49,035 bases of DNA, taken from positions 1-49,035 of IMG/VR virus record IMGVR_UViG_3300025646_000063. One strand, 5' to 3'. This document shows positions 4,410 through 49,035 of this stretch, piece after piece. The DNA comes from a virus. Its lineage: Duplodnaviria; Caudoviricetes. Position 1 is the first letter of the stretch. Each line of letters begins with the position of its first letter. Under the pieces are notes generated by a model. The model saw only the letters and a program-made list of their open reading frames with translations, was not told the DNA's origin and ran no database searches. The position numbers and the translations under genes are program-made.

Positions 4410-4466
4410 ACACGTATCCTGACATTCGCATGGGGCGAATGACATTTGCCACGACAGGAGATTTCC

Positions 4467-4682
4467 ATGGCTAACAGCACTTTTAACGGTCCCGTTCGTT
4501 CTGAAAACGGCTTCAAAGACATCACCAAAAACGCCACTACTGGCGCGGTGACTGAAAACATTTCAATTACTCACGACGGCACTAACAGCGTTGTGATTAT
4601 TAAGGATCTCCCAACATCCGATCCTTCTGTAGCGGGTCAGATTTACAGCAATGCTGGCGTATTGACTGTTTCGGCAGGCTAA
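4467..4682 (+). CDS. Small virion protein (putative)
   Basis: AGGAG RBS then MANSTFNGPVRSENGF; LPTSDP..AGQIY...GVL.VS C-terminal motif. Confidence 0.6.
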   Translation: MANSTFNGPVRSENGFKDITKNATTGAVTENISITHDGTNSVVIIKDLPTSDPSVAGQIYSNAGVLTVSAG

Positions 4683-17357: not shown

Positions 17358-17432
17358 ATATGCGATACACGTTTGACGATCAAACATGGCAACGAGCTTG
17401 CCAAGATAGCGACGGCTGATTGGTAAAGCGCG

Positions 17433-37313: not shown

Positions 37314-39220
37314 TGACAACCGGCAAACTGCAAATGGCTATGTTCCCGCCAAAGAGCGATTGGGTGCCTCCCGTGGAGTTGCCCAACATCTTTGACGCCG
37401 AAGAAATCGCCATCGACGTGGAAACACGGGACCCGAATCTGAAACAGAAAGGACCCGGCTGGCCCACAAAGGATGGTGAAGTGGTGGGTTACGCCATAGC
37501 AGTGCCGGGTTGGAAAGGCTACGTCCCCGTCGGTCATGCTGGCGGGGGTAACCTTGACAAGCGCATCGTCAGTAAATGGCTCAAGAAAGTATTTGAGTGC
37601 CCTGCTGACAAGATCATGCACAACGCTCAGTACGATCTGGGCTGGATACGTGCAGAGGGGTTTGAGGTTAAGGGGCGCGTTATCGATACAATGATTACCG
37701 CTAGCCTGATTGACGAAAACCGCTTTAGCTACAGCCTGAACGCCCTCTGTTACGACCACCTTGGCAAAACCAAATCAGAAAAGACCTTGGTAGAGGCCGC
37801 GAAAGAATTTGGCGTAGACCCGAAAGGCGAGATGTGGAAGCTACCCGCCATGTACGTCGGCCCCTACGCCGAAACAGACGCGGAGATTACGCTGGAGCTT
37901 TGGGGACACTTCAAGACGTTGTTGAACCGTGAGGAGCTTTGGGATGTGTGGCGGCTTGAAATTGCACTCCTGCCGCACCTTGTGGATATGACTATGCGGG
38001 GCATCCGGGTAGACATCGACCGCGCCGAACGGACCAAGCAAATCCTAATGAAGCAGGAAAAGGAGACGATCAAACAGATCAAATCGCTGGCAGGCATGGA
38101 CGTGGAGATCTGGGCCGCGCAATCTATAGCCAAGGCGTTTGACAAACTGAGCATCCCCTATCCGCGCACGGAGAAAGGAGCGCCCAGCTTTACCAAATCG
38201 TTTCTGTCTGAGCATAGCCATGAGCTTGCAAAGCACATCGTCAAAGCGCGCAACCTGAACAAGACCAGTGGCTCATTCATCGACGGCATCCTGAAATATG
38301 TCCACGATGGAAGAATCCACAGTCATATCAATCAGTTACGGTCTGACGATGGCGGCACCGTCTCAGGCCGCATTTCCATGAACTCGCCCAACCTACAACA
38401 AATCCCGGCCCGCGACCCAGAGTTAGGCCCTATGATCCGTTCGCTATTCCTACCAGAAGAAGGCCAGCAGTGGGCGGCCATAGACTTCTCCCAGCAGGAA
38501 CCACGGATCTTGGTTCACTTCGCAAAGAACTACGGAGACTATAAAAATATGCCCATGGAGGGCGTAGAAAGCTTCGTGGACGGCTACCGCAACAACCCGG
38601 ACATGGACTTCCACAGCATGGTCAGCGAGATGGCAGGCATCCCACGTAAGCAAGCTAAGGTGATCAACCTCGGCATGATGTACGGCATGGGAGTTAACAA
38701 GCTGTCGGACCAACTAGATCTGACCGTGGACGAAGCAAAAGCCCTAACACAGCAGTATCACAAGCGCGTACCTTTCGTAAGAGGCTTGATGAAAGGCGTA
38801 CAAAACAAGCTTGACGACCCACGGTCCTCGGGCAGTCTGCGTTCACTGCGCGGCAGGAAATGCCGCTTTGATCTGTGGGAACCTAACAGCTTTGAAATGC
38901 ACAAGGCGCTTCCCCGCGAAGAAGCAATCGCGACCCACGGCCCAACGACCAGTTTGCGGCGGGCGTACACTTATAAGGCGTTGAACAGGCTGATACAGGC
39001 TTCTGCCGCAGATATGACCAAGCAGGCGATGGTAGACGTTTGTGAGGCGGGTTTTATTCCCATGTTGCAGGTGCATGATGAACTGGCTTTTTCTGTAGAT
39101 AGCCCGGAGCAAGCCAAGGAACTTGCCACGATCATGGAAAACGCGGTGCCTTTACAGGTGCCAAATAAATGTGATGTAGAAGTGGGGCCAAGCTGGGGAG
39201 AATGCGAGGAACAAGCATGA
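37313..39220 (+). CDS. polA: Family A DNA polymerase (3'-5' exonuclease + polymerase)
   Basis: DVET, HNAQYD, YAETD exonuclease motifs; DFSQQEPR motif A; RKQAKVINLGMMYG motif B; QVHDEL motif C. Confidence 0.95.
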   Translation: MTTGKLQMAMFPPKSDWVPPVELPNIFDAEEIAIDVETRDPNLKQKGPGWPTKDGEVVGYAIAVPGWKGYVPVGHAGGGNLDKRIVSKWLKKVFECPADKIMHNAQYDLGWIRAEGFEVKGRVIDTMITASLIDENRFSYSLNALCYDHLGKTKSEKTLVEAAKEFGVDPKGEMWKLPAMYVGPYAETDAEITLELWGHFKTLLNREELWDVWRLEIALLPHLVDMTMRGIRVDIDRAERTKQILMKQEKETIKQIKSLAGMDVEIWAAQSIAKAFDKLSIPYPRTEKGAPSFTKSFLSEHSHELAKHIVKARNLNKTSGSFIDGILKYVHDGRIHSHINQLRSDDGGTVSGRISMNSPNLQQIPARDPELGPMIRSLFLPEEGQQWAAIDFSQQEPRILVHFAKNYGDYKNMPMEGVESFVDGYRNNPDMDFHSMVSEMAGIPRKQAKVINLGMMYGMGVNKLSDQLDLTVDEAKALTQQYHKRVPFVRGLMKGVQNKLDDPRSSGSLRSLRGRKCRFDLWEPNSFEMHKALPREEAIATHGPTTSLRRAYTYKALNRLIQASAADMTKQAMVDVCEAGFIPMLQVHDELAFSVDSPEQAKELATIMENAVPLQVPNKCDVEVGPSWGECEEQA

Positions 39221-39417
39221 GAGATGACATACGAACGGCGGCAAAAGTGGGTTCAATTTATTACGACCTACACGATGGCGAAGGGTTTGTCGTTTTAAAT
39301 GAACGGTGGTATGTCCTTTTAGAAGACATCTGCGAGTTGGATGTGATTCAAGATATAATTGCGGACTTAACACAGCTTTACGAAGACCGCCATGCAGAGG
39401 TTTTTACAGACAAGTAA
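39217..39417 (+). CDS. Hypothetical acidic protein
   Basis: GAGG RBS and ATGA overlap with the polA stop. Confidence 0.55.
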   Translation: MRDDIRTAAKVGSIYYDLHDGEGFVVLNERWYVLLEDICELDVIQDIIADLTQLYEDRHAEVFTDK

Positions 39418-40648
39418 GTTTGTTCTTTTTTTATTTTTTTCTCAAAGTGCAATAGCCGACACATTAATAAAAACAGGATGTTCTAAAAACTATCCCGGCG
39501 TTCAATGGTTTATTTACGAAGACGTTGATGGCAACCGCTACTCAACAAAAGATCCTAGATCTTGGGAATGCGGTTTTCGTCGTTATATGAATTTAACGAT
39601 GGAAAAAGAAGCGGGGGATAGATTTCACCCCGCCATAATTAACGTAGATTACAAAGACATGCTGGGCCGTGAAGAGCCTTGGGGCATGATTCACCACAAA
39701 ACCACTATTGGCCGCGCGGAACGAGAAGGTTGTTGTACCGTAAAAATCTACGGGGATGGCCGGGTCGGAGAAGGCGTCTTTACGTTAGGTGTAACAGAAA
39801 TCCAATATCATATACAAGAAGAGCCACGTTGCCCTAAAGACGCAAATCTAGATTGCATGGGTTATCACTTTAAAGGACCCACTAACGGCTTCATTTATTA
39901 TGGGGAAGAGGATGAAACCACGGTGACGTGGGAACTCGGTGTATTAGTATATGCCTCCCACTCCAAATACGGCAAAGACACGCCCATAGAACTCATGCGG
40001 GAATACCCGGAAGCGTGGAATAAATGGCAAAAAAGAGTGGATCAATACAATGAGATTTATGAAAAGTCTGGCGTTTATGTTAGATATGAACTGAAAGAAC
40101 TGTGGCTTTCACACTACCACAAACTGAAAGACGTAGAGCGCCAAGCTAATCAGCTTTCGGTAGATGTTGTATTGGCTCATGGCACGTCTTATCCAGACAC
40201 GTGTGGGGTGGCTCATCCTAATAGAAGTTTTAAAAAAGACGCTCCTCCGGTTTCTATGTCTCGTTGTACTATCTATACAGATTTGCACGAAATCGGACAT
40301 TCAGTAGGCTTGGCCCACGGCCCAGAGAATCAATATAACGAAGCCTCCGGTTATATCTTCCCCGAGTTTGGGCATGGTTGGAATGACATCTGTGGCGTCA
40401 ACGACGACATCATGTCTTACGGCTTTAACGGAAACTACCTCACAAACTCTGACTTGATGTGTGCCGATATATTTTCTTTTTCTGGACTAACGCCAGCAGG
40501 ATATAGAGACATGACAGACACGGCCTACGCGCTCAACCGGGTTAGATATGACGTAGCTCTAATCAATAACGACGAGTTTGAAGAAGAGGGCGTTTTAAGG
40601 GCGGTTGAGGTAAAAGCGCGCAGAATTAGGGAAGTAATTATAGATTAA
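39392..40648 (+). CDS. Secreted zinc metalloprotease (metzincin, reprolysin-like)
   Basis: Signal peptide ending SAIA; HEIGHSVGLAH zinc motif; CGVA upstream; DIMSY Met-turn. Confidence 0.8.
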   Translation: MQRFLQTSKFVLFLFFSQSAIADTLIKTGCSKNYPGVQWFIYEDVDGNRYSTKDPRSWECGFRRYMNLTMEKEAGDRFHPAIINVDYKDMLGREEPWGMIHHKTTIGRAEREGCCTVKIYGDGRVGEGVFTLGVTEIQYHIQEEPRCPKDANLDCMGYHFKGPTNGFIYYGEEDETTVTWELGVLVYASHSKYGKDTPIELMREYPEAWNKWQKRVDQYNEIYEKSGVYVRYELKELWLSHYHKLKDVERQANQLSVDVVLAHGTSYPDTCGVAHPNRSFKKDAPPVSMSRCTIYTDLHEIGHSVGLAHGPENQYNEASGYIFPEFGHGWNDICGVNDDIMSYGFNGNYLTNSDLMCADIFSFSGLTPAGYRDMTDTAYALNRVRYDVALINNDEFEEEGVLRAVEVKARRIREVIID

Positions 40649-40654
40649 CGCCGG

Positions 40655-40683
40655 TTGCTTGAGGCTACGACTGTCCGTATACT
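40655..40683 (+). promoter_or_regulatory. sigma70 promoter
   Basis: TTGCTT - 17 bp - TATACT. Confidence 0.65.
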
Positions 40684-40710
40684 CTCTTATACCAAACTAG
40701 GAGAAGTGTA

Positions 40711-40941
40711 ATGGACACTACCAAATGGAAATCCGTGCTGTTGCCGCGTGACGTTTATGAAGAGCTTGTAGTGATTGCTCGCGTTGAAGGGCGTACAATT
40801 AGTGGACAGCTTCGTTATATTCATGAGGGCTGGAAGATGGCTAATCTGTCAGACGGCGATCAGGAATATATTGCGGAGCAAGTAGATTCGTTCAAAAAGG
40901 AGAATGGCGTAGACCTTACGTCAAAAAGCTTTTCAATATGA
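40711..40941 (+). CDS. Ribbon-helix-helix (Arc-like) DNA-binding protein (putative)
   Basis: WKSVLL..DVYEEL..IA..EGRTISGQL pattern; AGGAG RBS. Confidence 0.65.
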   Translation: MDTTKWKSVLLPRDVYEELVVIARVEGRTISGQLRYIHEGWKMANLSDGDQEYIAEQVDSFKKENGVDLTSKSFSI

Positions 40942-41117
40942 GTCAATTTACAACCATGCAGGCGGAGTTTGACAAGGCGTTGAGAAAGCTTGAAAAAGCC
41001 TACGAAAGCGGCGACAAAATTAATCGATCTGACTTCGACAAACTGCATATGTGGCATGAATTTCTCAAAACCAAGTTAGACGCGGAGAGAGAAAAAAATG
41101 CCCGAGAAGTCGGATAA
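40938..41117 (+). CDS. Hypothetical protein, 59 aa (absent from the ORF track)
   Basis: ATGA overlap; MSQFTTMQAEFDKALRKLEK... Confidence 0.55.
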   Translation: MSQFTTMQAEFDKALRKLEKAYESGDKINRSDFDKLHMWHEFLKTKLDAEREKNAREVG

Positions 41118-41337
41118 CGTTAATTGTCCCTCGCACTACAACCAAGGTGCGGTGGAATGTATTGACGCCATCAAAGCAAGCTTGACCCAAGAAGGGTTTC
41201 GGGCATATCTCAAGGCGTCTTCAATGAAATATCTTTGGCGCTATGAGCATAAAGGAAAACCGTTAGAGGATCTGAGGAAAGCAGAATGGTTTCTGGGACG
41301 TTTGATAGACGAACTGGTACATGGTGGTTTGGAATAG
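41098..41337 (+). CDS. DUF3310-family phage protein
   Basis: DNVN.PSHY..G.VECIDAI...KYLWR..HKG...EDL.KA.W.L. Confidence 0.85.
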   Translation: MPEKSDNVNCPSHYNQGAVECIDAIKASLTQEGFRAYLKASSMKYLWRYEHKGKPLEDLRKAEWFLGRLIDELVHGGLE

Positions 41338-41480
41338 CTAACGAAGATGTAAAGATTGCCATACAGGCCGCGCATCAAAGCGCCAACCGCTTACAAAAGC
41401 CCATAGCCATTCAATCCGACCTGTCGGTTGTGCCCGCCGATCAAGCCACCAAAGAAGTGCTTGAAATCGTCCGACCGTAG
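41286..41480 (+). CDS. Hypothetical protein (start uncertain)
   Basis: AIQ.DLSVV...LEIVRP; overlaps the DUF3310 gene. Confidence 0.45.
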   Translation: MVSGTFDRRTGTWWFGIANEDVKIAIQAAHQSANRLQKPIAIQSDLSVVPADQATKEVLEIVRP

Positions 41481-41489
41481 TGTTAATTT
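41461..41489 (+). promoter_or_regulatory. sigma70 promoter of the putative sRNA
   Basis: TTGAAA (41461) - 17 bp - TAATTT (41484) with extended -10 TG. Confidence 0.6.
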
Positions 41490-41495
41490 GAGGGC

Positions 41496-41605
41496 GTGAC
41501 ATGTTCTCATGCGTGTCACTCCTAAAACGTTTGATTAGGGTTAATGTTAGACTCCCAAAGTGAACATACTCCTAACCCGGCCCCGCGCAATGCGGGGCTT
41601 TTTTT
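41496..41605 (+). ncRNA. Putative trans-acting anti-RBS small RNA (~110 nt)
   Basis: Own promoter and terminator, 5' hairpin GTGACATG/CGTGTCAC, three ACTCC anti-SD tracts, seed ACTCCCAAAGTG complementary to three early-gene RBSs. Confidence 0.6.
41580..41605 (+). terminator. Rho-independent terminator
   Basis: GCCCCGC-GCAAT-GCGGGGC-T7. Confidence 0.9.
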
Positions 41606-41660
41606 GCGCTCTTGCTTTTCATATGTTATTTTATCCAACTAATTCAGATGGGGCGCATAC

Positions 41661-42461
41661 GTGCAGTTAATCGACGCGATTGATATGGGGACAGTGAAAA
41701 CCTACAAGAACGAACGCCGATGCTACATAGGCGCAAGTAATGTAGGTAATCCCTGCCACGCCTTTCTTCAGTACAGCCTGCGCGGCTACCCACAAAACCT
41801 CCCACCACCCGCAGTCATGCGGATCTTCGCCCTCGGCCACTATCTGGAAGAAGTGGTTGTTGAAGACCTGAAGATGGCGGGCGTTTACGTTCAGGAGGTT
41901 AACCCAAAGACCGGGAAACAATGGACGTACACGGCCCTCGGTGGACACCTACGCGGCCACGCCGACGGCGTCATCAACAACGGCGAATCGATGCAGATCC
42001 TTGAGATTAAGTCGATGAACGAAAAGAAATGGCGCACCTTTAAAAACTTGGGGATCGAAAAAAGTCATCCAATCTACTACGACCAGATGCAACTCCTCAT
42101 GGGGCTGTCTGGCTTTACATCCGCATGGATGGTGGCGTACAACAAAAACACCTCCGTGTACCACGCACAGAACGTCCCTTTCGACGCACCACGGTTCAAG
42201 GACCTGATGCGTAAATCCCTCTCCGTGGTCCGTGGCTCGTCCACTACTCGCATCTCAGATACCCCTGATTGCTTTGAGTGCAAGTACTGTAACTACAAGC
42301 CACACTGCTGGCCCGACGGCGAACAACCTCTCCCGCTCTCCGTCGAGTGCCGCACCTGTCGTCACGCCAAGCCGACAGCGAAACGCAAGTGGTATTGTAC
42401 GCTACACAAGTCACGGGCCACGGACCCCTGTTCACAATGGTCAAAGTTGCAACCGGAATGA
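41661..42461 (+). CDS. Cas4-like PD-(D/E)XK exonuclease with extra C-terminal Cys/His cluster
   Basis: IGAS.VG.PC, GH, GHADG, LEIKS, Q.Q, CKYC..K.HC; then CRTC...C..H...C. Confidence 0.8.
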   Translation: MQLIDAIDMGTVKTYKNERRCYIGASNVGNPCHAFLQYSLRGYPQNLPPPAVMRIFALGHYLEEVVVEDLKMAGVYVQEVNPKTGKQWTYTALGGHLRGHADGVINNGESMQILEIKSMNEKKWRTFKNLGIEKSHPIYYDQMQLLMGLSGFTSAWMVAYNKNTSVYHAQNVPFDAPRFKDLMRKSLSVVRGSSTTRISDTPDCFECKYCNYKPHCWPDGEQPLPLSVECRTCRHAKPTAKRKWYCTLHKSRATDPCSQWSKLQPE

Positions 42462-42689
42462 AACTTCCCCCTGAAAGAATTACGCGGGCTAGGTTGATTC
42501 GTTGCGAGATTGAATTAGACGAAATCCATAGACTTACTTATGAGGACCGCTACTCTTGCATAATTCCTCAACCTCGATTCATAAGTAAAAAATCGTGGGA
42601 ACGGCATAGAAAAAACCAAATTTTAAGTTTAAAAAAACGCCATCGTTATTTGAAGGAGGCTCTTCATGGCTAAGTTGCAACCGGAATGA
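42444..42689 (+). repeat. 18-bp direct repeat pair AAGTTGCAACCGGAATGA
   Basis: Exact copies at 42444-42461 and 42672-42689. Confidence 0.9.
42458..42673 (+). CDS. Hypothetical basic protein, AT-rich
   Basis: ATG lies within the first 18-bp repeat; ORF is enclosed by the repeat pair. Confidence 0.5.
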   Translation: MKLPPERITRARLIRCEIELDEIHRLTYEDRYSCIIPQPRFISKKSWERHRKNQILSLKKRHRYLKEALHG

Positions 42690-42691
42690 CT

Positions 42692-42859
42692 ATGAGCGGA
42701 GACATTTGTTGGTGGTGTCGCGGAAAGCTGATATGGGGCGGCGACCATGACGTAGAAGACGACGACCATTTTGACATGTCTACAAACCTGACCTGCTCCG
42801 ACTGCGGCGCACACGTTATTTATTACCGACCCACTGAGGAGGAAAACCCTGATGGCTAA
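42692..42859 (+). CDS. Zinc-ribbon protein, 55 aa (absent from the ORF track)
   Basis: CWWC..LIWGGDHD...TNLTC..CGA. Confidence 0.7.
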   Translation: MSGDICWWCRGKLIWGGDHDVEDDDHFDMSTNLTCSDCGAHVIYYRPTEEENPDG

Positions 42860-43106
42860 CAAAAAACGCCGCGCCCGTGGCAAAGACGGACGATTTATCG
42901 CGGACAATCCTGAGACAGAAGTGAACGAAGCGTGGGAACAGCCGCAGAACGCTAGCGTGTCCATAACCGCGCCCGCCGCCGCAAAAGGCGACTCATCCAA
43001 AAAACTCCACCGTATCGCAGAGCCAGAAAAAAGCCTAATGGGTTGGCAAGGATACTTCGCGTTGTTTGTAATTTTATTAATTATGTCCTTGATCGGTTTG
43101 ACTTAA
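42852..43106 (+). CDS. Membrane-anchored protein
   Basis: GAGGAGG RBS; RARGKDGRFIAD.P.T..NEAW N-terminus; C-terminal TM helix. Confidence 0.65.
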   Translation: MANKKRRARGKDGRFIADNPETEVNEAWEQPQNASVSITAPAAAKGDSSKKLHRIAEPEKSLMGWQGYFALFVILLIMSLIGLT

Positions 43107-43146
43107 TCAAGTATACCTACCCCCACTCGCATGTGGGGGCAGGCGA

Positions 43147-43653
43147 TTGGATCGACTAACTTGCAAATTATGCAAGAAAAGAAAATCTAAAAAACATTTT
43201 GGCGCGCGCTACCATAAGACAGGGTCATACCAAAACGGTAAACCCGTCTGTGTCGAGTGTGATGCCAAAATTCAAGTCGATTCCGTCTACAAAAGCCCCC
43301 GCAACTACCTCTCTTCCCGCTTCCGGGACATGCGTACCCGATCCAGACGCTACGACATAGAACTCGACGAACAAGTAAACGTAGACTATCTAATGCACCT
43401 GTTTGAAAAACAAAACGGGTTTTGTGCCGTGTCCGGCCTACCTATGACATGGATGCACGAAGGACTGTACACAAACCACGGCTCACGGCGCGGGACCAAC
43501 ATTTCTGTTGACAGAATTGATCCTGAAGCAGGTTATGTCCTCGACAACATTCGACTCGTTTGCGACCGCGTCAATAAAATGCGGTCCAATATGACCGACG
43601 GCGACCTTTATTTTTGGTGTACCGTACTCGCAAAAGCCCTCAGAACAAACTAA
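43147..43653 (+). CDS. HNH-like endonuclease
   Basis: CKLC/CVEC zinc finger; Q.G.CA.SG, SVDRID...GY...NI.LVC..VN.M; TTG start. Confidence 0.7.
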   Translation: MDRLTCKLCKKRKSKKHFGARYHKTGSYQNGKPVCVECDAKIQVDSVYKSPRNYLSSRFRDMRTRSRRYDIELDEQVNVDYLMHLFEKQNGFCAVSGLPMTWMHEGLYTNHGSRRGTNISVDRIDPEAGYVLDNIRLVCDRVNKMRSNMTDGDLYFWCTVLAKALRTN

Positions 43654-43832
43654 TCCTGCTTCAGCCTGCGCGCCGCCTGTTCTATCAATTTCAACCGCCC
43701 CGCATAAAACGATTCGTCTTCTTCCTCAACCTCTGGCTCTTCCACGGGTTTCTCAGCACCATTGAAATCAAGCTCAAGCTCTTCTTCCAAATCATCTAGA
43801 ACCAAATCGTCCCAATCATCATCCCGGCTCAT
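43650..43832 (-). CDS. Hypothetical very acidic protein
   Basis: 60 aa D/E-rich; overlaps the upstream minus-strand ORF. Confidence 0.55.
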   Translation of the reverse strand: MSRDDDWDDLVLDDLEEELELDFNGAEKPVEEPEVEEEDESFYAGRLKLIEQAARRLKQD

Positions 43833-44088
43833 TATTCTTCCATTCCTCCACGCTAATTACCCAATCCATGGGTATCGCAATCTCCGCGTCCCCCTCTTCC
43901 ACTTCACCCCTGTCATTTAACAAAACGTGCGGACACAGCAAAAGACGCCGCTCGTCCTGATGAAGTATCACGCCCATAGATAACACCGACGCCTCTTTCG
44001 TCTCCTTCATCTCCTCAACCGAACGCCAACCCACACGGCTCCCGCCACACGCATCACGCCACTTGACCAAAAAAAGTCTCGGCATCAT
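43819..44088 (-). CDS. Conserved phage hypothetical protein
   Basis: V.W.DA....W...S.G.....IP..WV pattern. Confidence 0.6.
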   Translation of the reverse strand: MMPRLFLVKWRDACGGSRVGWRSVEEMKETKEASVLSMGVILHQDERRLLLCPHVLLNDRGEVEEGDAEIAIPMDWVISVEEWKNNEPG

Positions 44089-44166
44089 CTTGCTATCCCC
44101 CAGATATAAGATAGAGTTAGTCCTTCTATTGAAGTAGACTACTACAGTCCGCCGGGAGAGTCTGAT

Positions 44167-44427
44167 ATGGGATTGGCAATTGATTCAGAAAAAAGAGTAG
44201 ACGCCGCCAAACTACTGGAAAGTAGCGAGAGCTTCCGCGAATTCGTAGCCAATGCCCTGCAAAACGACATCTGGATGGGCGACGAACAAAGCAAGCACAT
44301 GATGGAAACCCTGATGGCCGACGACGAACATGAGTTTGTGATGGCCCTGTGCCAAATCGGATTCATCGTCTACACCGATTACCTCATCGAAACCCGCGAC
44401 CAGTTCAAGCACAAGAGCTTCCACTAA
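44167..44427 (+). CDS. Hypothetical protein
   Basis: GGGAGAG RBS; acidic, helical. Confidence 0.6.
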   Translation: MGLAIDSEKRVDAAKLLESSESFREFVANALQNDIWMGDEQSKHMMETLMADDEHEFVMALCQIGFIVYTDYLIETRDQFKHKSFH

Positions 44428-44597
44428 TGAGACACTGCTACGTCTGCAACCGATGCGGGGTGCCCATCAACAACGCCCTCTGCGACCAATGCCACAAAGA
44501 CCGCAAGGACAAACCCGTCAAAATGCAAATCGCTGAACACTTCGTCGCCCTCTTCGTCATGTCCGTACTCACCGCCTACGTCTACTTCTACCTATGA
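44427..44597 (+). CDS. Small Cys-rich membrane protein
   Basis: TAATG coupling; CNRC...CDQC and a C-terminal TM helix. Confidence 0.55.
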   Translation: MRHCYVCNRCGVPINNALCDQCHKDRKDKPVKMQIAEHFVALFVMSVLTAYVYFYL

Positions 44598-44737
44598 GCG
44601 ACCGCACAGGTGAACTGCTCGTCGGGGCGGCGAAAGTCATGGCAGGGATACTCATTATCCTTATAGCATCATGCACCATCGTCACCTCACACGACCCTCA
44701 ATGGGAATGGCCCCGAGACTTGGAGCAGGGAGAATAG
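44594..44737 (+). CDS. Small membrane protein or lipoprotein, 47 aa (absent from the ORF track)
   Basis: ATGA overlap; VMAGILIILIASC hydrophobic segment. Confidence 0.5.
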   Translation: MSDRTGELLVGAAKVMAGILIILIASCTIVTSHDPQWEWPRDLEQGE

Positions 44738-44739
44738 AC

Positions 44740-44765
44740 CACGGGCCACGTATCACGGACCACGG
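44740..44765 (+). repeat. 4x heptamer array CACG(G/T)NN
   Basis: CACGG gc CACGT at CACGG ac CACGG. Confidence 0.85.
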
Positions 44766-44767
44766 GT

Positions 44768-45030
44768 CTTAATTTCGCTATCTATATAGTGTTTTCCCAG
44801 AGAAATAAAAAAATAAAAAATAAATTCTAAATAGCCGTTACCGGCGTTACCGCGTTACCTTGCCCTGAAAGCCGCATAAACACTGGGTTTTGTCGTAACA
44901 CGTGGGTAACGTGGGTATACACCACTTATGTTCAAGCTTGTTAATCAAGCTATCCATATTAGGGGCCTCACGATTCAAAAAAAATATTTTTATTTTTCTG
45001 GAAAATATATATATAGGGAGCCAAATTAAG
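44768..45030. other. Large imperfect palindrome, candidate replication origin
   Basis: ~47-bp AT-rich inverted arms (44768-44814 and 44984-45030) enclosing CGTTACC x3 and opposing GTAAC copies. Confidence 0.6.
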
Positions 45031-45070
45031 GTATGGTTAGCCGGACTTACTCACATACCGAGGTACTCCT

Positions 45071-45718
45071 GTGACAAAGAAAGCCAAGCGGTACGCCAAG
45101 GTGCTGGACACCAAGGCGGCGGCACTTCCTGAAGCAAAACGACAGCAAACCAACCGTCCGCCACTGGCACAAAAGCGTTTGACCAGAAGGCAGGAGCTTT
45201 TTGTCCGCGAACTTGTGTCAAAAGATGGACAGATCACAATGCGGGAAGCGGCGATTAACGCAGGCTATCCTGAACGGTCTGCCCATGTCAGGGCTTCTGA
45301 ACTCACCAATCCCCGAATCCACCCTCATGTCTGCCGCGCGATCCGTGAATACAGGCAGGAGCTTGACGAAAAGTATGGCGTGGAATACCAGAGGCATCTC
45401 AGGGATCTCCAGATCATCCGTGACGCGGCGTTAGAGAATGGTGCGTACAGTGCCGCAGTGCAGGCGGAATATCGCCGTGGTCAGGCACAGGGAGACATCT
45501 ACGTCAATAAAACGGAGATACGTCACGGCACTATTGATCAAATGAGCAAGGAAGAGGTCATGAAGGCCTTGAACGAACTCAAGCAGACATACGCCCCGTT
45601 GACACATGATGCGGGAGCCGAGGACGGTGGGAACAGAAAGCGGGCGCGTGAGCGGTTAGCCGAGGATGTGATCGATGGACATATTGGAAACGAAGGCGAA
45701 GCCGAAGAAACAGCGTGA
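45071..45718 (+). CDS. terS: Terminase small subunit
   Basis: LT.RQE.FV.E....EAAINAGY..SA...ASEL; GAGG RBS with GTG start. Confidence 0.8.
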   Translation: MTKKAKRYAKVLDTKAAALPEAKRQQTNRPPLAQKRLTRRQELFVRELVSKDGQITMREAAINAGYPERSAHVRASELTNPRIHPHVCRAIREYRQELDEKYGVEYQRHLRDLQIIRDAALENGAYSAAVQAEYRRGQAQGDIYVNKTEIRHGTIDQMSKEEVMKALNELKQTYAPLTHDAGAEDGGNRKRARERLAEDVIDGHIGNEGEAEETA

Positions 45719-46106
45719 AGCCAGCTTTTGGCAATCGTTGAAGAAAGCGATTCGAGATAACTGTCCTGATTGGTCTGCCACGCGGTTGGAGTCTAGGGCC
45801 ACGTTGGGTGTGCCGGATGTCCTGATCATGGACGGTAAGGGCGCTTGGCACATGGTGGAGTTGAAGACCACGCAGAATATGTCGGTGGACATCACGCCTC
45901 ATCAGGTGGCGTTTGCTACTAAACACGCGCGGGGCAGTTGCTGGATTGCGGTGAAGCTTTGTACGCCTACCGGCAATGAAATCTTTCTGTACCGTGGCGA
46001 CCGTGCGGTAGACTTGAAGATGGACGGATTGCGCGCCACCCCCACTAAACATTTCAGCCATCCTGTTTCGTACCGGAGTGTTCTTCACGCTATTGCCACT
46101 ATGTGA
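45675..46106 (+). CDS. PD-(D/E)XK nuclease / Holliday junction resolvase (VRR-NUC-like)
   Basis: E..FW, RLES...GVPDV, VELK, .PHQ.AF. Confidence 0.75.
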   Translation: MDILETKAKPKKQREASFWQSLKKAIRDNCPDWSATRLESRATLGVPDVLIMDGKGAWHMVELKTTQNMSVDITPHQVAFATKHARGSCWIAVKLCTPTGNEIFLYRGDRAVDLKMDGLRATPTKHFSHPVSYRSVLHAIATM

Positions 46107-46121
46107 GTTATCCCATACTAT
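46093..46121 (+). promoter_or_regulatory. sigma70 promoter with inverted-repeat operator in the spacer
   Basis: TTGCCA - 17 bp - TACTAT; TATGTGAGT|TATCCCATA at 46100-46117. Confidence 0.65.
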
Positions 46122-46159
46122 GGTGGTGGGCATGTGCCCTGATTAACGGAGAACGAAAC

Positions 46160-46450
46160 ATGAGACTTGAATTTGCATTGGCGATTCTGGCGAAAGAGAT
46201 GGCTTTTTCTGCGGATGCTTTTTTCGATAAAGAATCAGAAATTTACCGAGACATCTGGGAAGCCATTGAAACGGTGAAACGGGTGACTACTTCACGGTTG
46301 ATAGAAGAACTCGTCGAGCATGAAGAGCAGAATGATCAACCCGCTCATTTAGAAAGCCTGAAGATACATTGGCGTAGGCAGGGTTTTACTGATCTGGTAC
46401 AGGAGTATTGCGACTATTTTCCCGCTTCAGATCGGGAGGCTTTGTCATGA
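46160..46450 (+). CDS. Hypothetical early protein
   Basis: GGAG RBS, ATG at 46160. Confidence 0.6.
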   Translation: MRLEFALAILAKEMAFSADAFFDKESEIYRDIWEAIETVKRVTTSRLIEELVEHEEQNDQPAHLESLKIHWRRQGFTDLVQEYCDYFPASDREALS

Positions 46451-46704
46451 GAGAACTAAGATTACCGGTGTGGACCGTGGTGTGCGGCGAGCGGTGCAGG
46501 TGGTTTCCTGACCATGCCTCTGCAAAGGAGTTTGCTAATAACGAGTGGGACAAAGAAGCGGACGGTGTGCCCTTTGTCGAATCGAAAACCATTTGGGATG
46601 TGGAAGAGATCTGCGAGATTCTGAACAACATTGAATCGTTTGCGGACAACGCACCGGTTAAGGGGGAGCTTCGACTAAGTGTTTTTACTAATCGGATGGC
46701 TTGA
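46447..46704 (+). CDS. Hypothetical early protein
   Basis: GGGAGG RBS, ATGA overlap. Confidence 0.6.
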   Translation: MRELRLPVWTVVCGERCRWFPDHASAKEFANNEWDKEADGVPFVESKTIWDVEEICEILNNIESFADNAPVKGELRLSVFTNRMA

Positions 46705-46807
46705 AAAACGAATGCGGACGCCGGATTTTGAAGAAAAACAGCAACCGTATTTCCGATATCCGATGCCCGATCCTTATCACGGTTTTTTTGAAAAGAGGGA
46801 AATTGAA

Positions 46808-47017
46808 ATGCAAACAGTAGGCGAAGCCGCCGAGGCCAGATACGCTGGCCTGACTTATGACCATGCCCTGCCGCAGGGCTGGGTAGATCAGTGCTGTGAC
46901 AAAGGCCTTGATCCGCGAGGCCATTTCGTTTGGCTTTACGACGATTACGTTGGAAGGCCTGCCCCTATCACTGACGAGGGGGACCGCATTGTGTCCCTGC
47001 TCGCCCGTGATCCGTAG
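46808..47017 (+). CDS. Hypothetical early protein (frame open from 46679)
   Basis: GAGGG RBS before ATG at 46808; followed by a terminator. Confidence 0.5.
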   Translation: MQTVGEAAEARYAGLTYDHALPQGWVDQCCDKGLDPRGHFVWLYDDYVGRPAPITDEGDRIVSLLARDP

Positions 47018-47034
47018 GCGCTAGCACCTACGCC

Positions 47035-47058
47035 AAGCCGCCTTCGGGCGGCTTTTTT
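47035..47058 (+). terminator. Rho-independent terminator
   Basis: AAGCCGCC-TTCG-GGCGGCTT-TTTT. Confidence 0.9.
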
Positions 47059-47085
47059 GTGCCCAAAGAAATTTTAAAAAGAGCA

Positions 47086-47155
47086 TTGCAGGGCGGGGCG
47101 GCGTATGCGATAGTTCGGGTGCGGCAATCCTGCCGCATACTTTGGGAGATATACC
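47086..47155 (+). promoter_or_regulatory. Early cassette 1 leader (promoter, hairpin, CTTTGGGAG RBS)
   Basis: TTGCAG - 17 bp - GATAGT within TATGCGATAG; GTGCGGCA/TGCCGCAT hairpin; ACTTTGGGAG. Confidence 0.65.
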
Positions 47156-48295
47156 ATGCAACATTCGATTGAAAATTCAGACCACACCCTGACCCGCTTG
47201 CTTCAACAGGTACAGGACCAAGCCGCCAGATCGCAGGACTTTCTGGCACCGACTAACCAGCTTCAACTTATAACCGGTGATCGGGGTGACGGTAGCAAGG
47301 TCAGCCAGATTGTTCTGGAGCAATCAGGCGGGATGCCCACTCAGATCCTGACCGCTAATGATGTGGCGTTTGATCAGATCAGCCAGCGGGCCGGTATTGA
47401 TGTCCGGACTGCCCGCCGCTTACAGCAGGATTACTCCACCGAATTCGATGGATTGATCAACGCTATCTGGCAAAAGGAACCGGCGGTGCGAATGATCCGC
47501 ACGTTTCAACACGCGACCCATGCCAATCTTGGGGAGGCGAGGGGCTTTTTGAGCGATAAGTTTAAGACCTTCGACAATGTTCATTTGTTGCAGTCGGCCC
47601 TGCCGGAACTGCTGGATAGCGATGCCCAGTGGAAAGTGGTTAACGGGACCGTGACTGACAAGCGCCTGTACCTCCGCCTCAAATCCGAAGTGATCACGGG
47701 CGAGGGCGCGGCGGTTGGCGACATCATGGCGCTGGGCATTGGTATGAGTAACAGCGAAGTCGGTTGCGGTAGCGTGAACGTGTACCAAATGTTCTGGACG
47801 CTGGCCTGCCTAAACGGATTGCAGACTGAAAAGCGCCATCGCAAGTCGCACATCACCGGCGCGCGTGGCGATGCTGATACGTGGGGCCTGCTGACAGATG
47901 AAGCAAAGGATGCGGATAATCACGCGCTGGCGCTTCAAATGCGGGATGTGACCAAGGCCTACGCTAGCCGCGAGTCATTCGAGGAAGTGCTGGAAAAAAT
48001 GAAAACCGCGCATCAGGACAAAGTCGAGGGTTCGCCGCAGTCCGCAGTCGAGGCCATGGGCAAAGTGCTGGCGCTGACCAAAAAGGATACCGCTAGCCTG
48101 ATGGACGGCTTGCTCGCCACTATCGGGCAGGCGGGCTATGCCGGTCAGCCAGTAACCCGCGCCACCATGGTGAACGCGGTGACAGCGGTAGCGCATCAGG
48201 CGGACGCGGATAGCGTGGACGATTGGCAGAAGCTGGGCGGGCGCGTGTTGGATTTGCCCCGTTCCGATTGGCAACGCGTGGCGATGGCCGCATAA
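47156..48295 (+). CDS. DUF932/DUF945-family phage/plasmid protein
   Basis: R.FLSD.F...DN, SNSEVG.GS, L.CLNG motifs. Confidence 0.75.
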   Translation: MQHSIENSDHTLTRLLQQVQDQAARSQDFLAPTNQLQLITGDRGDGSKVSQIVLEQSGGMPTQILTANDVAFDQISQRAGIDVRTARRLQQDYSTEFDGLINAIWQKEPAVRMIRTFQHATHANLGEARGFLSDKFKTFDNVHLLQSALPELLDSDAQWKVVNGTVTDKRLYLRLKSEVITGEGAAVGDIMALGIGMSNSEVGCGSVNVYQMFWTLACLNGLQTEKRHRKSHITGARGDADTWGLLTDEAKDADNHALALQMRDVTKAYASRESFEEVLEKMKTAHQDKVEGSPQSAVEAMGKVLALTKKDTASLMDGLLATIGQAGYAGQPVTRATMVNAVTAVAHQADADSVDDWQKLGGRVLDLPRSDWQRVAMAA

Positions 48296-48314
48296 CCTAC
48301 ACTCCCCAAAGTGT

Positions 48315-48340
48315 GCCCCGCTTCGGCGGGGCTTTTTTTT
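48315..48340 (+). terminator. Rho-independent terminator
   Basis: GCCCCGC-TTCG-GCGGGGC-T8. Confidence 0.9.
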
Positions 48341-48404
48341 GCCTGCGGGATATGCGATAGTCCGACTGCCGCAATGTTGCGGCGAAGCTTTGGGAGACTT
48401 TGTT

Positions 48405-48788
48405 ATGGCAACACTTAATTTGGATTTGCGTGATCTTGATATCGAAGCGGAAGAAATTTCGCTAATGAGTTGGGAAGCGCCCGCGATGCTGGAATCCAGC
48501 GGAATCACTCCGGAAGATCTGCACGGGGAATGGATGGCGATGGATCTTTACATTCGCGAGGATTGCGAAGCGTCATTCGACTTTGATCGCGTGGCGCAGT
48601 GGATCGCGGAGGGTGAGTTATCGGACGGGGAATTGCGGGATCTATCCTTTCGTATCGCTCGCGAATTTGTAAGCCGATTGGATAACGTCCGCCACTGTGC
48701 GGACCGGTATCTAGAAACCAACCGCCAAAATGTGGAGCGCATCCGCGAATTAGAGCGCGCCGCCGCACCGGATGCCGCGACAGCGTAG
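48405..48788 (+). CDS. Hypothetical acidic early protein
   Basis: CTTTGGGAG RBS, ATG at 48405; own leader and terminator. Confidence 0.65.
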   Translation: MATLNLDLRDLDIEAEEISLMSWEAPAMLESSGITPEDLHGEWMAMDLYIREDCEASFDFDRVAQWIAEGELSDGELRDLSFRIAREFVSRLDNVRHCADRYLETNRQNVERIRELERAAAPDAATA

Positions 48789-48804
48789 GCAACCCCGCCC
48801 CGAT

Positions 48805-48831
48805 AGCCCGCCATTCGGCGGGCTTTTTTTT
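48805..48831 (+). terminator. Rho-independent terminator
   Basis: AGCCCGCC-ATTC-GGCGGGCT followed by a T run. Confidence 0.9.
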
Positions 48832-48893
48832 GCCTAGCGTATGCGATACCCTAAGCGGGCCGCGATTGGCGGTGACACTTTGGGAAACTGATT

Positions 48894-49035
48894 ATGCAAT
48901 TACTCGACACGCGGGGCGCAAACCCCAAATTGAAAAAAACGGCGGAGCTGGGGAACGTGTTCGGCTCATTTCGTTACGCGGGCTTATCGCTTTATCCTGA
49001 CGCGGAATTGTGCCCAGCATCTAAGGCGGCGGGGT
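48894..49035 (+). CDS. Early protein, 3'-truncated (possibly GP88-like, Cys-containing)
   Basis: MQLLDTRGANPKLKKT...AGLSLYPDAELCPASKAAG; CACTTTGGGA RBS. Confidence 0.55.
   Translation, partial: MQLLDTRGANPKLKKTAELGNVFGSFRYAGLSLYPDAELCPASKAAG

Follow-up and report, generated by a model that had tools for sequence, protein, structure and literature searches.

The window, by which we mean the whole stretch of DNA that was analysed (49 kb; 49,035 nucleotides), comes from an uncultured marine phage and has a G+C content of 50%. Its PolA is 48–56% and its capsid protein 70–73% identical to those of DSL-LC04, 023Pt_psg01, HTVC023P and HTVC027P, and its gene order is similar to that of these relatives. 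By homologous genes and gene order, rather than by a multigene tree, the phage is HTVC023P-type-like; the group is described as akin to the pelagiphage type that is the most abundant one known (PMC12753301). The window runs from replication genes through small genes, the sRNA locus described here, a Cas4-like nuclease gene and the small terminase gene to a row of single-gene cassettes, and in locus L003 the large terminase gene follows the cassette row. No RNA polymerase was matched among the 44 proteins scanned from this incomplete genome, and a search of genome contigs aimed at finding the host returned no DUF932-like relatives. Elsewhere in the window, an Rfam Mu-gpT-DE RNA (66.4 bits) lies at 4417–4469, just 3′ of the major capsid gene, and a GroES-like co-chaperonin gene lies at 912–1358; the cultured relatives are annotated with one too. 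An AT-rich non-coding stretch with short repeats (44750–45050), before the small terminase gene, has an outline shared with relatives and could be an origin or packaging region.

A predicted sRNA gene with its own promoter and terminator

The initial annotation had described a standalone unit made of a promoter, about 110 nt of structured sequence and a strong terminator, with a seed complementary to the ribosome-binding sites (RBSs) of three genes. On rechecking, the coordinates of promoter, seed, terminator and RBS matches, and the distances of 7–8 nt to each ATG, were all correct (Table 1). To compare this unit across phages, we drew on the best 80 of 420 DUF932-like loci, on 73 Cas4-like loci and on pattern matches, which together gave 43 sRNA candidates. 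Alignment A1 holds 31 of these; three false hits, one duplicate, two near-duplicates (L093 and L103) and six sequences with unalignable 5′ halves (L039, L041, L042, L046, L052 and L077) were left out. Mean column identity in A1 is 56%; the extended −10 bases, basal stem, seed and terminator are conserved.

The −35 element (41461–41466) lies within the final codons of a short upstream ORF, and the extended −10 (TG at 41481–82 and −10 at 41484–89, after a spacer of 17 nt) follows the stop codon of that ORF. T41484, A41485 and T41489 are present in 31/31 homologues and G41482 in 30/31, and the three middle −10 bases vary; the first four −35 bases are kept in 30/31, where coding constraint may hold them. 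As a consensus match the promoter is weak and falls below the listing level of the promoter scan in this genome, so the prediction draws its support from conservation. The RNA that would start here folds at −40 kcal/mol (z = −5.35), and none of 200 shuffles equalled it, in agreement with the structured unit first described. A distinct 5′ hairpin, directly following the extended −10, is predicted in the folds of most homologues. In the seed-presenting hairpin, 98% of the cells of the basal stem in A1 are paired and compensatory two-sided changes occur at two of five tested pairs; the whole hand-set structure beats 500/500 shuffles and all slid controls, although the tool cautions about the relatedness of the sequences. 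RNAalifold on alignment A2 returned just three terminator pairs and did not recover the seed stem, because that stem is misaligned in A2.

Table 1 Features of the sRNA locus and of the tagged cassettes in the window.
Feature	Position	Strand	Basis or remark
Predicted sigma70-type promoter, extended −10	41461..41489	+	Conservation
Predicted non-coding RNA of ~110 nt: variable 5′ hairpin, seed hairpin, terminator	41496..41605	+	
20-codon ORF, judged incidental	41501..41563	+	
Seed-presenting hairpin	41538..41578	+	Hand-set structure on alignment A1
Seed, complementary to RBS tag	41551..41562	+	
Intrinsic terminator and U tract	41579..41605 (hairpin 41579–41599)	+	
Cassette 1 leader: promoter element 47104–47112, leader hairpin, tagged RBS 47139–47148	47104..47155	+	
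Target gene 1, DUF932-like, 379 aa	47156..48295	+	phrog_1362
Second antisense copy: small 3′-UTR hairpin, seed core in loop	48299..48314	+	
Cassette 2 leader, tagged RBS 48387–48396	48351..48404	+	
Target gene 2, 127 aa, no family match	48405..48788	+	
Cassette 3 leader, tagged RBS 48876–48885	48840..48893	+	
Target gene 3, cut by window end	48894..49035	+	Full-length L003 counterpart matches Pfam GP88

The terminator scores best in a scan of 38000–49035, so that read-through RNA from the upstream genes would be expected to end in the seed hairpin too. One might then suppose that there is no free sRNA and that the seed hairpin acts solely as the 3′ tail of the upstream operon mRNA. Here, as in the 3′ copy of cassette 1 described below, a seed loop is followed by a terminator; the −35 overlaps coding sequence; and one RNA contig crosses the promoter. 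We think this quite unlikely, given that the extended −10 is located downstream of the stop codon, with its functional bases kept in 31/31, and that the separate 5′ hairpin begins just after the −10 in most homologues. Of eight sequencing runs listed, three RNA runs contain matching sequence, at shares of 0.05–0.11. Four RNA runs yielded only sparse, low-depth assembled contigs without ends or strand, and the one contig at the locus (X6, depth 2) spans the promoter and ends before the seed.

The locus might also encode a peptide of 20 aa, which the initial annotation had named as a potential explanation, for a 20-codon ORF is open in the window. This ORF is intact in 5/31 homologues, no Met-start ORF is found in 11/31 and the remainder vary in frame and length; the peptide is largely refuted, and we find it barely credible. 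A minus-strand ORF from 41510, behind an SD-like tract, was rejected on finding its frame broken in L099 and L125. The Rfam search that had been proposed was run against Rfam 15 and gave no gathering-level match for the sRNA (including C4, AbcR/ar15, cuckoo/ar14 and OmrA-B); the best local match, to OmrA-B, scored 22 bits where the cut-off is 40. We predict that the locus is a conserved, non-coding sRNA gene with its own promoter and terminator. In four loci (L039:5911–6000, L042:5547–5640, L045:6075–6170 and L046:5986–6070) a second promoter and a conserved, structured-looking leader lie shortly 3′ of the sRNA.

Tagged cassettes

Each cassette opens with a terminator, followed in order by a near-palindromic 9-bp promoter element, a hairpin in the leader, a tag over the Shine–Dalgarno sequence (SD) and the start codon. 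Up to about seven such cassettes occur in relatives, where the same tag precedes different genes. In the window the tag ends 7, 8 and 8 nt before the ATG of cassettes 1, 2 and 3. The first target has no Pfam match, and the atlas clusters to which it belongs carry DUF932 on 30–48% of their members. HTVC027P gp35–38, which are classed as Early, with the polymerase and gp28 as Middle (PMC12753301), occupy the gap that is syntenic to these cassettes. We call the window cassettes early by gene position and not by homology; the DUF932-like protein is not homologous to HTVC027P gp35. Across loci, 155/191 distinct sense tag contexts precede an open start and 3/191 precede a terminator, and 45/75 distinct antisense contexts precede a terminator, an orientation that matches what pairing between RNAs would predict.

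The 9-bp promoter element, at 48351–48359 and 48840–48848 in the second and third cassettes and also at 17359, overlaps the −10 of each cassette promoter. Relatives have it in both orientations at the same position, as an operator might be. A candidate for its binder is the RHH-like protein encoded at 40711–40941, which scores 24.6 bits, under the cut-off of 26.

A second antisense copy of the seed core, missed by the initial annotation, lies directly 5′ of the cassette-1 terminator (48315–48340). Among 63 loci examined, 50 have a T tract in reach, and 45 of these have the 3′ copy. It fits the RBS of its own gene best in 5/23 loci and has a predicted cis-pairing probability above 0.5 in 9/23, so the copy more probably gives feedback in trans, perhaps in cis too. 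Pure cis fold-back, strong in the window, was unsupported over the 23 loci and was rejected.

Predicted pairing of the seed with the tagged RBSs

The 11-nt core of the seed is identical in 27/31 homologues and one C shorter in the other four. It had been placed at the tip of a stem; the hairpin stands, but the seed is not fully open. In the window 3 bp close a 5-nt loop and opening costs 2.6 kcal/mol, and across all folded homologues the cost is 1.7–4.4 kcal/mol. The window contains a single copy of the 10-nt seed, compared with a shuffle average of 0.025. Of its 8-nt tag there are five plus-strand copies, three at the cassette RBSs and two elsewhere (7346 and 37937), compared with a mean of 1.34 and a maximum of 5 in 200 shuffles. 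We ranked the pairing of the 21-nt seed loop with the 54 curated gene starts of the window, and the three genes originally matched by the seed came first, third and fourth (−20.3, −17.1 and −16.8 kcal/mol). Gene 44167 ranks second and gene 9146 is close at −16.6 kcal/mol, both through interrupted duplexes. Gene 44167 is a doubtful candidate for a fourth target: its RBS (44145–44166) lacks the tag and can pair with the 5′ side of the seed loop, but varies in close relatives that have the same seed.

Two extra ACTCC tracts had been thought to address further targets, and this idea fell away. The one at 41568 occurs in 1/31 homologues (the closest kin of the window), and the one at 41518 is present in 22/31, absent from 9/31 and able to pair internally in several predicted folds; as further seeds the tracts are not supported.

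Pairing of a seed over the SD is known in bacterial sRNAs to occlude ribosome binding. The opposite outcome, in which pairing activates the early mRNAs or makes them more stable, perhaps through protection from a host nuclease, deserves mention in that the direction of regulation is something we infer. The duplex covers the SD itself, for which established sRNA logic predicts occlusion, and we rate activation as highly improbable.

Seed, tags and 3′ copy change together in one lineage

In a quick tree built from 57 rows of the DUF932-like protein, L031, L032, L033, L034, L062 and L076 fall on one nested branch (SH-aLRT 99–100). All 18 distinct tags in this six-locus clade have two Gs, not three; outside it, the 109 tag rows of a motif-anchored list comprise 103 with three Gs, four with two and two that are mis-anchored. 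The seed is one C shorter in all four sRNAs recovered from the clade, plus L328, and the closest sRNA relatives, L028 and L170, keep that C; L028 also has long tags. The 3′ copy follows suit, with a run of two Cs in 4/4 short-clade loci versus three to five Cs in 41/41 others, and L033 and L076 carry a short antisense copy further downstream. For an unbiased set of targets we took 77 distinct terminator-preceded starts from 30 loci, chosen without reference to the seed, after dropping two false anchors. Strong sites of the long clade prefer the long seed in 46/46 cases and strong sites of the short clade the short seed in 13/15, and cross-pairing of long with short is weaker by about 3–7 kcal/mol on average.

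The initial annotation had proposed asking whether seed and RBS vary together in relatives: they are co-conserved, and they co-vary in this one lineage. The covariation is a single evolutionary event that involves three classes of element kilobases apart, and the Fisher value of the seed-preference test therefore overstates it. A counter-case comes from L042, L044 and L052, where four distinct two-G tags, outside the 77-start set, are found and the seeds of L042 and L052 are long. In L041 and L045, two seed Cs are replaced by U, with pairing kept through G–U. The spectrum of G–U wobbles at tag positions was discarded as a line of evidence, being confounded with transition bias and motif-anchored. 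Since loop and tags changed together in one lineage, the RNA likely switches the tagged genes off as a group.

A change in specificity of a DNA- or RNA-binding protein in one clade would also move all sites together, with the motif as its binding site and the complementarity as a by-product, and the phage does encode the RHH-like protein. Sense and antisense copies, however, stand in different contexts; a DNA operator would have no use for such a split, and an RNA-binding protein could not recognize the two orientations as a single motif. The 9-bp promoter element, found both ways round at one position, makes a more plausible operator, and we judge a protein site at the tag to be very improbable.

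The same switch can be viewed as a matter of kinship between phages. The P1 and P7 c4 RNAs differ in specificity, and the main job of the RNA could be kin-specific exclusion, in which it shuts down early genes of a related phage that arrives later, while changes in the tag make new exclusion groups. A clade-wide change of code at all sites is what escape from a neighbour's RNA would be expected to leave, the loss in cross-pairing is of the size given above, and the promoter looks host-type, so that production of the RNA could begin at the onset of infection. As the main function we consider exclusion unlikely: across most of the clade the long tag has stayed the same instead of diversifying rapidly; no integrase or immunity gene is found among the 44 proteins scanned from the incomplete genome; and the related HTVC027P is described as lytic (PMC12753301). 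Exclusion is also compatible with repression of the phage's own cassettes, not an exclusive alternative to it.

Distant lineages

A model of the sRNA (R1), run over 100 sources, found no homologue beyond the tagged clade and gave no match in L068, L071, L079, L080, L275, L279, L284, L285, L287, L293 or L270–L273. In a promoter-plus-hairpin pattern scan, the non-tag matches listed looked like chance and gave no new tag. By eye, L080, L275, L279 and L284 have a short promoter–terminator unit, with terminators at 1568, 6311, 6447 and 1683, respectively, and a shared pyrimidine tract that looks complementary over 12–14 nt to their own, different purine-rich cassette RBSs. The unit spans L080:1460–1600, L275:6210–6340, L279:6350–6470 and L284:1585–1710, and may represent a second code. 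In DSL-LC04 (L270:4100–6870, minus strand), again by eye, four to five cassette genes bear a different tag and a single antisense copy precedes a terminator (L270:5245, minus strand); the patterns used found no stand-alone unit there. As R1 has no match in the L080 group or in DSL-LC04, these would be analogues or unrecognizable homologues. In the L068, L079 and L285 groups we saw tags by eye and noticed no partner. Two cultured phages, HTVC023P (L271:13000–16160) and CRP-901 (L274:12000–14330), have repeated extended RBS motifs before several small genes.

A model for shut-off of the early cassettes

We propose, with a probability of about 0.75 and on the strength of the comparative sequence evidence, that the locus encodes a trans-acting anti-SD RNA that represses a tagged early regulon. 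Host sigma70 RNA polymerase would transcribe the sRNA from its own promoter, and it might be made also as the 3′ end of the upstream operon. The exposed 5-nt loop would first touch the tag, which lies unstructured immediately 3′ of the leader hairpin; pairing would then zip to 10–15 bp over the SD and block 30S binding. If the sRNA is stable and accumulates by mid-infection, the result would be a delayed shut-off of the whole cassette array, to which the 3′ hairpin of cassette 1 would add negative feedback using the same code. Kin exclusion would be a compatible extra role.

A wider proposal, possible but in our view rather doubtful, is that of a re-codable RNA address system. Every early unit would carry a lineage-specific RBS barcode, one sRNA and a 3′-UTR copy would shut off the array, and the code would differ between lineages (also, by eye, in the L080 group and DSL-LC04) and serve at the same time to exclude superinfecting kin. 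On this logic, the one start-associated sequence (SAS) copy that is reversed in Cluster K mycobacteriophages would also be accounted for.

Comparison with known systems

Among bacterial sRNAs, AbcR and CcsR/cuckoo display a C/U-rich seed in a hairpin loop before an intrinsic terminator and repress multiple targets. The predicted RNA likewise shows a loop seed before an intrinsic terminator; unlike bacterial anti-SD sRNAs, it would target the phage's own genes, with a tag that co-evolves. The c4 RNA of the temperate phages P1 and P7 acts within a lysogeny circuit on a single operon, from whose transcript it is processed, and c4 RNAs have phage-specific pairing codes. It controls the phage genes ant and icd by antisense pairing (PMC8201110), and ours would similarly be a phage RNA governing phage genes by antisense pairing. 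In contrast to c4, a stand-alone unit here would address several separate transcription units 5–10 kb away, it has no Rfam C4 match, and its predicted targets are DUF932-like, no-family and GP88-like genes rather than an antirepressor operon; the 44 proteins scanned from the incomplete genome include no antirepressor or integrase.

T4 RegB shuts off early mRNAs through the SD region and thereby eases the switch from early to later expression (PMC9409239). RegB is a protein nuclease that reads the generic SD core, whereas here a predicted RNA would read a private extended tag. In the type I toxin mRNAs aapA3 and hok, an anti-SD at the 3′ end of the mRNA sequesters the SD over a long 5′–3′ distance (PMC6733600); the 3′ copy of cassette 1 resembles this arrangement, although a pure cis role is unsupported, as described above. 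The closest printed architecture that we found is that of the Cluster K start-associated sequences, including their single reversed copy (PMC3203893, PMC11373665). SAS/ESAS share architecture alone with the cassettes, namely a repeated asymmetric tag a few nt before non-structural starts and a rare reversed copy (PMC3203893); the tag differs from the 13-bp SAS consensus, and the phage group and host are different. The passages on SAS in these two papers report no sRNA (PMC3203893, PMC11373665).

For the phages studied here, searches of open-access text turned up no description of such an RNA, and a 2024 review describes the role of non-coding RNAs in lytic phages as still to be worked out (PMC10884466). 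If our reading is true, the phage brings early expression to an end by means of a barcode that its own RBSs carry, and the natural pair of long and short alleles is a ready-made compensatory experiment. It would also offer a testable model for the start-associated sequences of mycobacteriophages, unexplained since 2011. By analogy, the predicted RNA would resemble bacterial anti-SD sRNAs and P1 c4 in how it works and RegB in the task it performs, as an RNA counterpart of that nuclease, while being a member of none of these families.
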